A DNA stretch of 5,169 nt from a virus (taxonomy: Duplodnaviria > Heunggongvirae > Uroviricota > Caudoviricetes): the IMG/VR virus record IMGVR_UViG_3300029518_000077. The stretch is one strand, 5' to 3'. The position numbers were made by a program, and so were the translations under genes. Of the stretch, positions 1-5,169 are shown in pieces. The notes under the pieces were generated by a model, which was given only the letters and a program-made list of their open reading frames with translations, did no database searches and was not told the origin of the DNA. The stretch's first letter is position 1. The number at the start of each line of letters is the position of its first letter.

Positions 1-450
1 AACAAATTAATTTTTATAAATAACGATAATGCAGATGTGTTTTTAATGGCTCCATGCTTTGCTCTTGGCGCATTGTATGCTATAAACAAGGACAAAATAT
101 ACATTTCACCACATGCACCAATAGGATTTGCAATATTATATAATTTTGTGTCAGACCCAACACTCAAGCATATGCTTTTTTACTTTTGCGCATGTACATT
201 TTTCGTGTATTTATCAACAACAAAAATAATAAAATCAGTAAGAATAAAACATGATGTGTCATATGGCGTTTACTTGTGGGGCTTTTTAATACAGCAGATA
301 ACATTCAGGTTATTACCTGATATAAACCTGTACTTAAATCAAGTTTTATGCATAGCACTATCACTTATTGCTGGACTGATATCATTTATTGCGATAGAAA
401 AACCAGCAATGGATATTGGGAAAAAGATATCAAACAAATTCAGATATTAG
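1..450 (+). CDS. Acyltransferase family 3 membrane protein, C-terminal portion (likely phage-borne O-antigen acetyltransferase, Oac/OafA-like); 5' end outside the window
   Basis: ORF 37..450 is open in the same frame back to base 1 (NKLIFINNDNADVFLMAPCF...), so the gene probably starts upstream of the window. The product is strongly hydrophobic with multiple predicted transmembrane segments and has acyltransferase-3-like C-terminal motifs (SYGVYLWGF..., ...IEKPAMDIGKK). GC is about 25-30% against about 50% for the neighbouring genes. Stop TAG at 448-450 is followed directly by an intrinsic terminator. The position, convergent with the tailspike, matches where O-antigen modification genes sit in P22-like phages such as Sf6. 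Family assignment is by recalled motifs only. Confidence 0.62.
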   Translation, partial: NKLIFINNDNADVFLMAPCFALGALYAINKDKIYISPHAPIGFAILYNFVSDPTLKHMLFYFCACTFFVYLSTTKIIKSVRIKHDVSYGVYLWGFLIQQITFRLLPDINLYLNQVLCIALSLIAGLISFIAIEKPAMDIGKKISNKFRY

Positions 451-480: not shown

Positions 481-2305
481 ACGTGGTAGTTGCGGATACC
501 TTCCATTCACCAGTTGATACGTATGTCCACTTCCACGGTCCGGTAGAAACCTGACCAAGCAATTCCCACTTGGTGCCAAACGGGAAATTAGTTGTATCTC
601 CCGTGGGTGGTGATACTNNNNNNNNNNNNNNNNNNNNNNNNNNNNNNNNNNNNNNNNNNNNNNNNNNNNNNNNNNNNNNNNNNNNNNNNNNNNNNNNNNN
701 NNNNNNNNNNNNNGTTGATCCTGCTCTGCCCACTACCCCATCTAATAGAATCAGTGGTGTTGTCGGGAATTACCGTACCATTAAAATTTGCAGTTGCATC
801 ATTAAGATATATGTATTTGCTAGATGAGCCTCCAGAGTAACTAGAAAAATGAGATGAAACCAATGAGATGAAACACGATTCCAGAGATACAGCTTCAACT
901 CCTCCATCATGATGATTAACCCCTCTAAATGCAGTTACGTTAATTCGACTACCATTTATATCAAATATTTTACCAGTGCTTTCTTCGCTTCCGCATCCAG
1001 ATAGATTCACTCCAGTACAATCTTTAAATTTATAGCCAGTACCATTAACGAAGTCAGCAGCCAAACAAGTCAGGCTGCTATATGTAATGTTATTAAAATC
1101 ATATGCAACACCTGAACATGTTTTCACATAAATATTGTTTAAATTATATGTGGTTCCACCTGCTTCGATTTTAACTCCAGTAACGACATCCTGAATAGTA
1201 ATGTTTTCCCATGTCTGCAACCAACTATCACTAGTGCGATAACCGGTTTTCACCCTATGAATATACAGGTCCTGAAGGCGCACATTGTAACTGATAGCGC
1301 TATATATCCCGTAATCACAAGGATTGGGCGCAGTATTTAGAATACTCAATCCAATTATTCTGGTGCTTCTTGTTTGTGTCCCGCTTAAATCACCTGATGT
1401 GTCACTATCCATATCTACCGCAACAATAAAGTCTNNNNNNNNNNNNNNNNNNNNNNNNNNNNNNNNNNNNNNNNNNNNNNNNNNNNTTTAATATCGTTAC
1501 CTGTTTTAATTAATCCACAGGAATCCATACCGCACCCCTCCAGCGTGACACGTGGAGGCACGATAGCGCCATACTTAATATCGTAAAATCCATTGAGTCT
1601 GAGCGTACCTCCTTCATATGGAAGGCATGCAGTCAGGCGTTCAAAGGCTTCACTGTTTTGCTCAGCCGTACATGATGTCATCATGCCACCGTTCTCTACC
1701 GGAATATCGATGTGGCTACCTGCTCTCTTCCATCGCTTACCGCCGGGGGTAACAAAAATATTCACACCATCGTCAGCTTCAGAACTGGAAAAGGCTATAA
1801 ACGTTCCTCCCCCAAGCCCGGGTGTGTCAGAGTAGTATCCACGAACAGTTATATTTTGCCCGACGAATGATGGCTCAATTGTTCTGAGCGTAGAAACGTC
1901 AGGGCATATTCCGATATATTTCTCTCCATCATCTTTCGCAATTTCTTCTTTTAACCTGATAATTCCCTGGTCAGGGTCGTACTTCAACACATTAGGAAAA
2001 TAGAACTGCTGCGCACCATACGCATCGTATACAGCCATAGAATGGCCTTGCACAGTTACGAACTTGGCAATCTGTCCGTTATATACCGGGTAACCAGCAG
2101 CGTTAATGATGATTGGCTGTGCAACAGGAACATGAGAACCATCTTCGTTCTCCACATAAACCTGAATCTGGTTTTCAGGATTTACCGGGTCAGTGTCAAT
2201 TTTACCGATATAAATTTTGCCATTGGCTACAGCTTTAAAAGAACGAGCCATAGTGAAGAGTTGAGAAGGCATGCTTACCACAACATTTGCGGTGATATCT
2301 GACAT
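479..2305 (-). CDS. Tailspike protein: P22 gp9-like N-terminal head-binding domain fused to a divergent receptor-binding domain; interrupted by two N-runs, 3' end uncertain (479 or 588)
   Basis: Minus-strand ORF 1415..2353 contains [59 protein letters not shown]...[31 protein letters not shown], a near-colinear match to the P22 tailspike head-binding domain as I recall it ([59 protein letters not shown]...[31 protein letters not shown]). The start is placed at ATG 2303-2305 (M of MSDITANV), with GGAG (complement of 2314-2317) 8 nt upstream. After YDPDQ the sequence is a different G/N/T/S-rich, beta-helix-like region. The ORF continues past the 1435-1486 gap in another frame (ORF 588..1412, open upstream to the gap: [11 protein letters not shown]...) and a third open segment in the original frame ends at TAA 479-481, abutting the terminator. 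Overall span of about 608 codons fits known P22-like tailspikes of roughly 620-710 aa. Confidence 0.82.
618..713. other. Run of 96 N (masked or unresolved sequence) inside the tailspike receptor-binding region
   Basis: Directly visible as n characters; the bases are not available for analysis. Confidence 0.97.
1435..1486. other. Run of 52 N (masked or unresolved sequence) inside the tailspike; reading frame differs on either side
   Basis: Directly visible. 52 is not a multiple of 3, and the open frames flanking the gap differ (codon phase 2 upstream, phase 0 downstream on the minus strand). Confidence 0.97.
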
Positions 2306-2426
2306 TTCATTGCTCCAGACGAATGATATGATGCAACCATGATGTGATTGCATACAGAAATGGTACTATTGAGTATTTATCCAGTAGGTTACGATGCCAT
2401 TCCACCCAACTGGTGAGGCATCAAGG
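2306..2426. promoter_or_regulatory. Divergent intergenic control region between tailspike and mnt starts; expected to hold the promoters and a repressor operator
   Basis: 121-bp non-coding gap between two divergent start codons. Contains inverted repeat ATGCAA (2331-2336) N11 TTGCAT (2348-2353), several ATGAT repeats (2323-2327, 2328-2332, 2339-2343) and an imperfect 22-bp dyad at 2366-2387. A possible minus-strand -10 TATCAT (complement of 2324-2329) lies upstream of the tailspike RBS. The -35/-10 assignment is not confident. Confidence 0.4.
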
Positions 2427-2687
2427 ATGTACAGCAAATACGACGAGGCGCAGTTTCACTTGAGACTTCCGCATGAACTCCACGCGAAAATTAAACAGCG
2501 TGCGAAGATGAATAACAGGTCTCTGAACTCAGAGATAATTGCAGCGATTGAAGAATCATTGGCTAAACAAAGCTCTGCATCCGTTTACATTGACGATGCA
2601 GAGCGTATGGCAGAACAACAATCTGATATGGTTAAGAAAATTGTCTTTGATACGCTCAAAGAGCTATATAAAAAAGACAGCAGCTAA
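2427..2687 (+). CDS. mnt: Mnt-like repressor, ribbon-helix-helix (Arc/Mnt/MetJ family)
   Basis: The 86-aa product MYSKYDEAQFHLRLPHELHAKIKQRAKMNNRSLNSEIIAAIEESLAKQSSASVYIDDAERMAEQQSDMVKKIVFDTLKELYKKDSS aligns along its length with P22 Mnt as I recall it (...HFNFRMPMEVREKLKFRAEANGRSMNSELLQIVQDALSK...NDAERLADEQSELVKKMVFDTLKDLYKKTT). Start is placed at ATG 2427 rather than the ORF-track ATG 2394 because GAGG (2415-2418) sits 8 nt upstream and the length then matches Mnt (83 aa). Stop TAA at 2685-2687. Confidence 0.85.
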   Translation: MYSKYDEAQFHLRLPHELHAKIKQRAKMNNRSLNSEIIAAIEESLAKQSSASVYIDDAERMAEQQSDMVKKIVFDTLKELYKKDSS

Positions 2688-2742: not shown

Positions 2743-4740
2743 CTATTCTGACAACGCATCAGACTTGGCACCTTGAGTCAGGGCGTTAATGGCCTTTTGC
2801 GCCTGCTGCATGGCTTTCTCAAACGCTGTTGATCCGCGTGGGGTGTTTGCCATTCTGAGCATTGCATTTCTGAATGGTTCGCTCTCATAGGCGCGAGTAA
2901 GAAGTCCGTAGCTTACCGCTGCGCCAGTTGTCGCCGGGTTCATTGCCGTCCCATACCCGATAATGAACGGGATGGTTTGCTGCCCTGTTGGTGTTGTTAC
3001 TGCCGCTTTTGCAGCCTGCTGCGTGGATTGCAGGTAGTTTTTTAATCCCTTCAGATAAGCAGCGTCCTGCCCCTTAAATGTGATGCCAGTCTGGTTTTGC
3101 AGGATGTTAAGCTGCCGAAGGAACTGGTCAGGGGATCCGCCAGATTTCTCCATCGCCTTTCCAATGATGCCATTGCGCATTTGCGCCCTGCCAACACGAC
3201 CAACTGAGTTATACAGCGTCTTAATTTCAGATTTGTTCTTGCTGAATAGCATGTTGTTGACAACTTCCGGCGTCAGGTCGCCTTTCATGAGAACATTCTT
3301 CAGCCTGGTATTCTTTAGTTTCGCCGCTTCGTCAGCGTAGACGGCATTGGCCTGCTGATATTTACGGAGAGTATCGTTGCCAAGATTCTGACCAATGGCA
3401 CCATTGATATCGTCTGTCATCGCCTTGTAAACGCGCTGAATGGCGGCATCGGAACGGTTTGGTAACACTGGTCGCTCACCCTTCACGTCCATTCTGAACT
3501 GGCTGCGCAGGTCGCTTAATTGCTTCAAATCCAGATTTACCGGACCATCAGGGCCAGCATTGCGAACAAGCTCATCACGATATGACTGAAGTTTTGAAAT
3601 TGTCTCGTTATCAGCTACCTTACCAAGCTTCTGCAGATTAGATATCTCAGTATCAATCTGCTGAATTGCTCGCGCAGGCTGAATGTTTACTCCAGCCATA
3701 GCATTCTGAACCTGCTCCAGTCGATTACCGGCGGCACGACGAATTCCTGATGTTTTCGCTTTAAGGCTGTCAATAACAACCGCTGGATCATACTCACCAA
3801 ATTTATCAGCAAATCTCTGCACCAACTGGCTTCTCGCTTCCTGTTGCGTTGCTCTCATTCCGCTTGTGCCAGCCAGAGGGATATTTTCTGCTGTAGTCTG
3901 CGCCATTTTTCCGACGCGGGAAGTTGGTTGTAACAGGTCTGTGGTGTGCAGAGGAATTCCTTCACGCTCTGCAAATCTGATGGCCTGCTGCGCTTCTGGC
4001 GCGATAGCACCACGAACGCCACGATAAGCAGCACCTAATCCACGTCCAGCAGCGTTAATAGCACCGCCAGCAAGTACACCAACGCCTAAATCGGTGGCGA
4101 GTGCTTCCGCATCATCTTTCGCACTATTTGCAGCAAGTGACCCGACTGCGTTTTCTGCTAGAAGGCGAGTTGCACCATGAACAATTCGACCAGCAAGTGT
4201 TGGTGCCTGTGTTGCAGCTCTCTCAACTCCAGCAGGAGTGAGGTAAGGCAATGCTTCAGCAAATACCCTTCCCTCTGTCGTTTGTGGAGTCAGCACGCCT
4301 TGCTGAAGGCCAAAGTCCTGTTCTAATCCCTGCGTTGTTACTCGTGGCGCTGGGTGATATGTCCCATCGCCAATTCCGAGTTTACCGCCAGCCCAAGCCG
4401 CCGCGCTTGTTACAGCATCGGCAACTGATGCAGGTATGTTTGCCACGTTCACGCCAGCCTGCACCAGTCCGCGACCAGTTTCTTTCACGGCTTCACCAAG
4501 ATCAGACACAAATCCACTTTGCTGTGGTTGTTGCTGTGCTTCTGGTTGTTGTGTCTCCACTGGCTGCACAGATGGCAATGGATAGGCAGCATAGAAAGCT
4601 TGCTTAGCCTGCTCTGCATTTTCTCCGGCTTGCGGGGCCACGACTTCATTGAAGTATTGCTCCTGAGCCTGCGCTTTTTGTTCTGGTGCTAACGCCTGAT
4701 ACTGTGGAGAGGCGATAACATCTTTCCATGCTTTAGCCAT
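2743..4740 (-). CDS. Ejection / DNA-transfer protein, probably P22 gp16-like (665 aa)
   Basis: Long minus-strand ORF at about 52% GC. The product is low-complexity and A/Q/G-rich (...QAQEQYFNEVVAPQAGENAEQAKQAF..., PEAQQQPQQSGF...) with no obvious enzymatic motif, typical of podovirus ejection proteins. It is the last late gene before the mnt/tailspike module, which is the position of gene 16 in P22. Its start ATG (4738-4740) overlaps the upstream gene's stop, and a G-rich Shine-Dalgarno (GGGGTGA) precedes it. Assignment rests on synteny and composition, not on a remembered alignment. Confidence 0.6.
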   Translation of the reverse strand: MAKAWKDVIASPQYQALAPEQKAQAQEQYFNEVVAPQAGENAEQAKQAFYAAYPLPSVQPVETQQPEAQQQPQQSGFVSDLGEAVKETGRGLVQAGVNVANIPASVADAVTSAAAWAGGKLGIGDGTYHPAPRVTTQGLEQDFGLQQGVLTPQTTEGRVFAEALPYLTPAGVERAATQAPTLAGRIVHGATRLLAENAVGSLAANSAKDDAEALATDLGVGVLAGGAINAAGRGLGAAYRGVRGAIAPEAQQAIRFAEREGIPLHTTDLLQPTSRVGKMAQTTAENIPLAGTSGMRATQQEARSQLVQRFADKFGEYDPAVVIDSLKAKTSGIRRAAGNRLEQVQNAMAGVNIQPARAIQQIDTEISNLQKLGKVADNETISKLQSYRDELVRNAGPDGPVNLDLKQLSDLRSQFRMDVKGERPVLPNRSDAAIQRVYKAMTDDINGAIGQNLGNDTLRKYQQANAVYADEAAKLKNTRLKNVLMKGDLTPEVVNNMLFSKNKSEIKTLYNSVGRVGRAQMRNGIIGKAMEKSGGSPDQFLRQLNILQNQTGITFKGQDAAYLKGLKNYLQSTQQAAKAAVTTPTGQQTIPFIIGYGTAMNPATTGAAVSYGLLTRAYESEPFRNAMLRMANTPRGSTAFEKAMQQAQKAINALTQGAKSDALSE

Positions 4741-5169
4741 TAATCACCCCATAGTGAAGAAAAGTTACTGCTGGCTGCTGGCTGTGATACCTGCTCAGAT
4801 TGCGGCAATGTCTGCGACGAAGAAGAAGTTCCTCTGTCAACTGCTGAAATAACCCGCAAAGCATCATAAGCTCGACCAGAAGCAGCTTTCAGCGAATTGA
4901 ACTGGTTTTCCATCTTCCGGCGCTTGGTATCAATGGTTTTTGTGGAGTCGCCAGGCTGAGGGAAATACATTTGATAATATTTTGACATTTCAGCAGGTGC
5001 GATAGCTGCCCCTGTTTCCTGACGGAGTATTGCCATTATTGCGTCATTAGCATTAACAACGTATTGCTGCTCTGTTGGGCTGAGCGTTAAGTTAGCCAGC
5101 GTCCCATTACCCAAAGCATTATTAATGATCGCCACTCGCTGTGGGCTAAGCTGGTCTTTCAGTGTATCT
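4740..5169 (-). CDS. Ejection protein, probably P22 gp20-like; C-terminal portion, 5' end outside the window
   Basis: The minus-strand frame is open from the window edge (5169) to stop TAA at 4740-4742. The ORF track begins it at a GTG (5133-5135), but the frame continues upstream without a stop (...DTLKDQLSPQRVAIINN...). It is translationally coupled to the downstream gene. Identity is inferred from gene order only. Confidence 0.45.
   Translation of the reverse strand, partial: DTLKDQLSPQRVAIINNALGNGTLANLTLSPTEQQYVVNANDAIMAILRQETGAAIAPAEMSKYYQMYFPQPGDSTKTIDTKRRKMENQFNSLKAASGRAYDALRVISAVDRGTSSSSQTLPQSEQVSQPAASSNFSSLWGD

Follow-up and report, generated by a model that had tools for sequence, protein, structure and literature searches.

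Which DNA does an Mnt repressor recognize in a P22-like prophage whose intergenic region lacks the P22 Mnt operator? The question arises in a stretch of 5,169 nucleotides, here called the window, which is a piece of a P22-like (Lederbergvirus) prophage and ~98% identical to phages Sf101 and IME10 (97–98% over positions 2150–2700). A sequence-only reading had noted that the P22 operator GGTCCACCGTGGACC is absent, and indeed it does not occur in the window, where the homologous position reads ATACAGAAATGGTAC. The same reading put forward three motifs in the span 2321–2390 as the best candidates for the Mnt operator. The operator does likely lie inside this span, at 2352–2366, in a conserved dyad that sits between the proposed candidates and had been overlooked; it coincides with none of the three.

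Gene content of the locus and the Mnt protein

The gene order is tailspike (minus strand), a 121-bp intergenic region, mnt (plus strand) and an ejection-protein gene:

37–450, plus strand: acyltransferase-like gene, 3' end; the Sf101 gene at this place encodes an O-acetyltransferase
1487–2305, minus strand: 5' part of the tailspike gene, with a P22 gp9-type head-binding domain; start codon at 2305–2303
2313–2316, minus strand: Shine-Dalgarno sequence of the tailspike gene, GGAG (CTCC on the plus strand), from reading the sequence
121 bp between the tailspike gene and mnt: intergenic region
2427–2687, plus strand: mnt, 86 aa, a ribbon-helix-helix (RHH) repressor with an Mnt tetramerisation domain and the recognition strand AQFHLRLP, from Pfam and PDB matches
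2743–4740, minus strand: ejection-protein gene, 665 aa

Residues 1–113 of the tailspike match Pfam Head_binding (PF09008, E = 6e-68), and the protein is annotated as tail or tailspike protein in Sf101 and in E. coli prophages. Of 5426 complete E. coli genomes, 336 have matches to the mnt/tailspike junction. Neither arc nor ant nor sieA is present among the ORFs and domain matches of the window, no arc or ant ORF lies between mnt and the tailspike gene, where the intergenic region is just 121 bp, and sar is likewise absent, unlike in P22 immI. Three runs of N (masked sequence) occur in the window, at 618–713, 1435–1486 and 2691–2711. The last of these conceals the gap of 55 bp from the mnt stop codon to where the ejection-protein gene ends; at the matching place VSe13 has a bidirectional terminator-like hairpin, and the Sf101 gap is only 17 bp long and of different sequence.

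Morons of the ant type that hold only mnt, lying between the ejection genes and the adjoining tailspike gene, are known in ST64T, ST104 and L (PMC2629481; bioRxiv 10.1101/2020.10.05.325894), and the phage L paper poses as a question why P22-like phages without an antirepressor keep mnt (bioRxiv 10.1101/2020.10.05.325894). The span 2321–2390 is best explained as the regulatory region of a reduced immI module of P22 type (“ant moron”) that retains only mnt. The Mnt/operator system and mnt-only morons are already known. What is new, as a prediction from sequence comparison, is the cognate operator of a widespread uncharacterised Mnt class, together with the reassignment of the flagged motifs to a leader hairpin and promoter elements; a literature search for Sf101 and mnt found nothing.

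The gene at 2427–2687 had been read as an Mnt variant, and domain matches bear this out. Residues 7–49 match Pfam Arc (PF03869, RHH; E = 7.5e-15) and residues 57–82 match Repressor_Mnt (PF11423, E = 3.4e-14), the C-terminal tetramerisation, coiled-coil domain. The protein matches two PDB entries, 1mnt (the structure of P22 Mnt; 74 aligned residues, E = 3.4e-19) and 1qey (E = 1.7e-8). DEAQFHLRLP of the window is aligned with DDPHFNFRMP of P22 in the 1mnt alignment, which gives the recognition strand AQFHLRLP vs PHFNFRMP in P22. In RefSeq the Sf101 homologue (gp14, L001 3245–3538) is named 'partition protein ATPase' and starts at an upstream ATG (window 2394), giving 97 aa. The true start of mnt is most likely 2427, with the Shine-Dalgarno sequence GAGG 8 nt upstream, because 11 of the 43 aligned relatives have a gap between the two in-frame ATGs and the PGAP products for E. 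coli copies of mnt are 84–86 aa long.

We gathered more than 300 loci with a DEAQFHLR Mnt from phage records, E. coli genomes, IMG/VR and GTDB (the GTDB genome scan contributed only 4) and condensed their upstream regions to 43 non-redundant representatives, which include Serratia, Buttiauxella and Citrobacter loci. GGAG followed by ATG stands at the same place of the tailspike leader in 41 of these 43. DEAQFHLR is kept in every homologue examined, including those of Serratia, Buttiauxella, Citrobacter, Klebsiella and Rahnella; E. coli, Shigella, Salmonella, Klebsiella, Serratia and others host the QFHLR class. An intact mnt ORF is carried by hundreds of prophages and recurs across genera. For the RHH-coding part, comparison with relatives gives a dN of ~0.1 and a saturated dS; judged by these values mnt is under strong purifying selection, and positions of the non-coding DNA that are invariant among the same relatives are therefore under constraint.

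The predicted operator and the mnt promoter

The alignment of the relatives divides the intergenic region into halves, lineage-specific to the left of ~2348 and conserved from there rightward to the mnt ATG. The following elements of the conserved half are discussed here:

2352–2366, no strand: predicted operator ATACA-GAAAT-GGTAC, from conservation and alignment to the P22 Mnt operator
2369–2374, plus strand: probable Pmnt -35, TTGAGT, aligned with the annotated P22 Pmnt -35 TTGAGA
2390–2395, plus strand: probable Pmnt -10, TACGAT, aligned with the P22 Pmnt -10 TATCAT
2366–2387, no strand: 22-bp imperfect dyad of the sequence-only reading, corresponding to the Pmnt -35 and spacer by alignment with P22
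2372–2400, minus strand: weak candidate leftward promoter ATGGCA-N17-AATACT, 8/12 matches, from our own PWM scan (score 5.4)

The dyad at 2352–2366 belongs to a family with the consensus (A/G)TACC-N5-GGTAC (CATACCGAAATGGTAC), of which the window carries the allele CATACAGAAATGGTAC. The arms TACC (2353–2356) and GGTA (2362–2365) are identical in 42–43 of 43 diverged relatives, with positions 2357 and 2361 varying, and are thus invariant where synonymous sites are saturated; the whole block 2351–2398 is conserved, the central AAA included, so that the invariance of the arms does not by itself set the dyad apart, nor does conservation alone establish that Mnt reads it. In the MAFFT alignment the dyad shares columns with the annotated P22 Mnt operator GGTCC-ACCGT-GGACC, and both directly precede TATTGAG. 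A third class is formed by ST64T, Gally and 59 IMG/VR loci with the strand PQFNLRLP, which carry AGACC-N5-GGTCT at the position of the dyad; the arms of this class are invariant and its spacer varies (ACTGT, ACGGT, GCCGT, ACAGT). The dyads of all three classes lie directly 5' of (T/G)ATTG. Three strand classes (QFHLR, HFNFR and QFNLR) thus appear to correspond to three arm sequences within a common 5-5-5 geometry and a common inner CC/GG. Among the QFHLR relatives, the most distant ones have a strong plus-strand promoter directed toward mnt, TTGATA-N17-TATTGT, whose 17-bp spacer is exactly filled by the dyad. Taken together, these comparisons make 2352–2366 the best-supported candidate operator of this Mnt class, and we consider it a reasonably probable one.

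The window itself has A at 2356, where nearly all relatives have C, so that its left arm reads ATACA vs ATACC. Owing to this C2356A change and to the A at 2352, only 3 of 5 arm pairs are symmetric in the window. The ATACA allele is rare, with two other distinct contexts (L014, L070) among ~100, and C2356A may weaken Mnt binding in this particular prophage. A match to TACC-N5-GGTA with one mismatch is expected by chance ~0.9 times per window-sized sequence. A search of the complete Sf101, JEP4 and VSe13 genomes gave no second operator site: each has a single TACC-N5-GGTA, at mnt, apart from an additional chance-level match at position 31041 of VSe13; a target in the mnt/tailspike intergenic region is therefore the only one visible. 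In Sf101 (L332) the sequence GTACCAGATGTGTAC at 18350–18364, just upstream of the integrase gene (start 18400), has one mismatch to the consensus. With 0.6–1.1 one-mismatch sites expected per genome (~0.65 for Sf101), it is probably a coincidence.

Immediately to the right of the dyad lies the probable mnt promoter. Positions 2390–2397, which begin with its -10 element, are identical in 43 of 43 relatives. In the window its spacer has 15 bp, a poor length for sigma-70; JEP4-type relatives have 17 bp, and there TTGTTG-17-TACGAT is a top-scoring plus-strand site of a PWM scan. The 22-bp imperfect palindrome CTATTGAGTATTTATCCAGTAG is present at 2366–2387 as described, and its identification as the -35 element and spacer of the mnt promoter follows from its alignment to the P22 Pmnt -35 and -10: CTATTGAG in the window matches CTATTGAG in P22, which contains the annotated Pmnt -35 TTGAGA. 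The weak leftward candidate falls at the position of P22 Pant in the alignment, and transcription from it, if it is used at all, would begin within the dyad's right arm. A standard scan places this promoter below threshold, and it is not kept in JEP4-type relatives.

The P22 Mnt tetramer is reported by Vershon, Knight, Sauer and co-workers to bind with one RHH dimer per operator arm. Starting from the observed gene identities, motif positions, conservation and alignment with the P22 site, we infer binding, promoter activity and regulatory outcome as follows. By analogy with P22, an Mnt tetramer would place one ribbon-helix-helix dimer on each arm of 2352–2366. Bound there, Mnt would abut the Pmnt -35 at 2369; if a leftward promoter toward the tailspike gene persists at the Pant position, Mnt would also cover its start region. 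Because the site lies in this way, Mnt would autoregulate and, in the lysogen, prevent leftward transcription from entering the tailspike gene. Late transcription running antisense through mnt would still extend into the tailspike gene.

A more far-reaching proposal, which we put forward tentatively, is that two residues of the strand and three outer operator bases co-vary on a fixed scaffold and make up a natural RHH recognition table: HFNFR with GGTCC/GGACC, QFNLR with AGACC/GGTCT and QFHLR with GTACC/GGTAC. In addition, the orphan Mnt of Sf101-type prophages might be kept for a role other than the control of ant, either silencing a residual promoter into the tailspike gene or repressing the ant genes of superinfecting relatives with the same class of operator. 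The relation of strand to arm is not a simple code, because the ST64T/Gally class has the QFNLR strand of Arc but lacks the TAGA boxes of Arc.

The strongest competing explanation is that there is no working operator. In that case mnt would be a decaying remnant of immI, the conserved block would reflect promoter elements and recent common ancestry, and the symmetry of the dyad would be a disused ancestral legacy. The mutated left arm (ATACA) and the 15-bp Pmnt spacing of the window count toward it, as do the loss of arc and ant and the finding of one dyad site only in each genome searched; the phage L paper also raises the possibility that mnt-only genes are remnants (bioRxiv 10.1101/2020.10.05.325894). 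An ORF that stays intact in hundreds of prophages and across genera, at a dN of ~0.1, speaks against decay, and so do dyad arms that are unchanged at saturated synonymous divergence and the rarity of the ATACA allele, which besides the window is seen in 2 of ~100 distinct contexts. We regard the remnant explanation as unlikely, and continue to favor a functional operator at 2352–2366.

Inverted repeats in the mnt and tailspike leaders

On either side of the predicted operator lies an inverted repeat within the leader of a gene:

2393–2422, plus strand: inverted repeat GATGCC-N18-GGCATC of the mnt leader, from an inverted-repeat search
2331–2353, minus strand: hairpin of the tailspike 5' leader (stem 9 bp, loop 5 nt), from an inverted-repeat search and natural variants

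The first of these could itself be the relevant element, whether as a site in DNA or as an RNA hairpin that occludes the mnt ribosome-binding site. It is a perfect 6-bp repeat with additional inner CCACC/GGTG pairing, encloses the mnt Shine-Dalgarno sequence GAGG (2415–2418), has arms that are nearly invariant in the 43 relatives and lies within a stretch (2376–2440) that folds with -16.8 kcal/mol (z = -2.2); a C2422T variant retains a G.U pair in the mnt sense. As a DNA site, however, its centre-to-centre spacing of 24 bp misfits the geometry of the P22 Mnt tetramer, and it has no counterpart in the P22 operator map. As an RNA element it suffers from the promoter position, since a transcription start ~7 nt past TACGAT would leave the GATGCC arm outside the RNA, and its arms vary too little for a pairing test. 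The repeat may control translation of mnt only if a transcript starts upstream of 2393. We judge it very improbable that this element takes the place of the dyad at 2352–2366.

The second repeat concerns two of the motifs from which the analysis started. ATGCAA (2331–2336) and TTGCAT (2348–2353), 11 bp apart, and ATGAT at 2323, 2328 and 2339 are all present where the sequence-only reading had found them. RHH proteins can bind dyads or tandem repeats, and together with the 22-bp dyad these motifs had been put forward as its candidate binding sites for Mnt. As a background for the motifs, we shuffled the 121-bp intergenic region 2000 times with its dinucleotides preserved. Of these shuffles, 42% have some perfect 6-bp inverted repeat (gap of 3–20 bp), 13% have one of 9 bp with no more than 1 mismatch, 5% have a pentamer occurring three times inside 25 nt, and 68% have a 22-bp segment in which 7 or more of the 11 pairs are symmetric. 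In the whole window ATGAT has 22 sites vs 17.0 ± 3.9 expected, which is no enrichment. None of the motifs is clearly above chance when taken alone, and the comparison of relatives backs only the inverted repeat among them, as a hairpin and not as a protein site.

The repeat extends to 9 bp with one mismatch, ATGCAACCA/TGATTGCAT, and in the tailspike sense it forms the hairpin AUGCAAUCA-CAUCA-UGGUUGCAU with one G.U pair. The sole mismatch of the stem, C.A on the plus strand, is this G.U pair in tailspike-sense RNA; natural variants replace it with A-U (IME10 type) or G-C (L063/L069), and an Escherichia sp. locus (L089) has a compensatory change from G-C to U-A. The sequence ATGCAA...TTGCAT is restricted to the Sf101/IME10 lineage. 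In P276M, JEP4, VSe13, LAM_HS and most IMG/VR relatives the segment is fully replaced by unrelated sequence, which is homologous to the stretch immediately upstream of P22 gene 9, while the DNA-binding strand is unchanged. P22 and all other lineages have a non-homologous hairpin at the same position of the tailspike leader (CCGUAGC-CAU-GCUGCGG, CCGCAGC-UCU-GCUGUGG, CGCAUC-UCC-GAUGUG, CCGCAAG...CUUGUGG and others). Sequence-by-sequence folding gives a hairpin in 74 of 74 distinct leaders, and the tailspike sense is the more stable one in 54 of the 74, which are not independent sequences. In a length-matched alignment of 16 sequences, pairing holds in 93.8% of cells; G-C and G.U alternate at many pairs, and a double change is seen once only. 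The single-sequence fold of 2331–2353 is not significant (z = -0.9). We conclude from these natural variants that 2331–2353 is a predicted structural hairpin in the leader of the tailspike (late) transcript and not a repressor site, of a kind whose structure seems conserved across P22-like phages and whose sequence is lineage-specific. An intrinsic (Rho-independent) terminator was considered at 2331–2353 and rejected, as a terminator scan was empty on both strands and the A/U-rich stem has no U tract; downstream of the hairpin the tailspike-sense sequence is CAUAUCAUUCGUCU. A search of 2200–2760 on both strands against Rfam, including P22 sar, found no match at E values up to 1.

The ATGAT repeats belong to the lineage-specific segment as well. 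Within them is an extended -10-like sequence, TGnTATGAT (2324–2332, plus strand), with TTTCAT 16 bp upstream; reading toward mnt, it would cross the hairpin and the dyad. Only the Sf101/IME10 lineage has it; TATGAT is retained in the diverged locus L089.

That Mnt should bind ATGCAA-N11-TTGCAT, the ATGAT repeats or the 22-bp dyad is the least probable explanation: the motifs do exist, an exact ATGCAA-N11-TTGCAT is rare (0.01 expected in the window) and parts of the 22-bp segment are conserved (ATTG, CAGTAGG), but 2321–2347 is unrelated in P276M, JEP4, VSe13, LAM_HS and many IMG/VR loci with an identical DEAQFHLR strand and is therefore not the operator, the variants of the inverted repeat swap bases and still pair (C.A to T.A or C.G; G-C to T-A), as expected of a hairpin and not of base-specific protein recognition, and the 22-bp segment corresponds in alignment to the -35 and spacer of P22 Pmnt and has a symmetry of 7 of 11 positions, a chance-level value, which relatives alter at 2367, 2372–2374, 2379 and 2381 without preserving it. 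Conservation across relatives, the check proposed for these motifs, thus points away from them and toward the dyad at 2352–2366.

Relatives and known systems

P22 (L008) contains GGCTACGGTGAATTTT twice, at ~5149–5164 next to gene 9 and at ~5042–5057 at the ant terminator. Homology of P276M, JEP4 and ST64T to P22 stops right after GGCTACGG, at a junction left of window position 2348, and a further relative (L243) is joined at the other copy of the P22 short repeat. These junctions suggest that arc-ant was lost or replaced via recombination at the short repeat. Several relatives have antirepressor-like genes (KilA-N, Rha or BRO-N) downstream of and convergent with mnt, as in Serratia (L091 1072–2745), JEP4 (L007 3072–4523) and VSe13 (L002 3570–3860). 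They are not under an mnt-proximal operator, unlike in P22, and those of JEP4 adjoin a second, C2-like repressor gene. No dyad-like motif was seen on reading the regions upstream of the VSe13 and JEP4 antirepressor-like genes. Their control looks different from that of P22 immI.

If confirmed, the dyad would be the cognate site of a widespread Mnt class and, with P22 and ST64T/L, would provide three matched repressor-operator pairs for DNA reading by a beta-strand. It would also give a handle on the question of the phage L paper, why antirepressor-less P22-like phages retain mnt. The picture of how immI works is unchanged, and from its sequence the locus appears to be an ordinary natural variant of a well-known phage switch.

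The closest comparison is with P22 immI itself. Both have a homologous Mnt with RHH and tetramerisation domains (49% identity), a 15–17 bp dyad of 5-5-5 architecture with inner CC/GG directly 5' of a Pmnt -35 in (T/G)ATTG and ~65–70 bp ahead of the mnt ATG, and a position between the ejection-protein genes and the tailspike gene. They differ in the strand (QFHLR here vs HFNFR in P22), in the arms ((A/G)TACC/GGTAC here vs GGTCC/GGACC) and in gene content, as arc, ant, sar and sieA are missing here. P22 has the strong Pant TTGACA-N17-TATATT, whereas the match here is at most 8/12 and there is no divergent Pant-arc-ant to control. In ST64T, ST104, L and Gally a lone mnt is likewise divergent from and adjoins the tailspike gene (PMC2629481; bioRxiv 10.1101/2020.10.05.325894). 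These phages also share a dyad just ahead of TATTG and a hairpin in the tailspike leader; they have the QFNLR strand and AGACC-N5-GGTCT arms, unlike the window, and their leader hairpin is of the P22 type (CCGCAG...), not ATGCAA...TTGCAT. P22 Arc lacks the C-terminal domain of Mnt, and its operator lies within the Pant spacer and has inner arm bases GA vs CC here, where there is no arc gene. Arc nevertheless has the same RHH fold, its strand QFNLR is one position apart from QFHLR, and its operator arms are also spaced by 5 bp (TAGA-N5-TCTA), with the outer TA in common with TACC-N5-GGTA.
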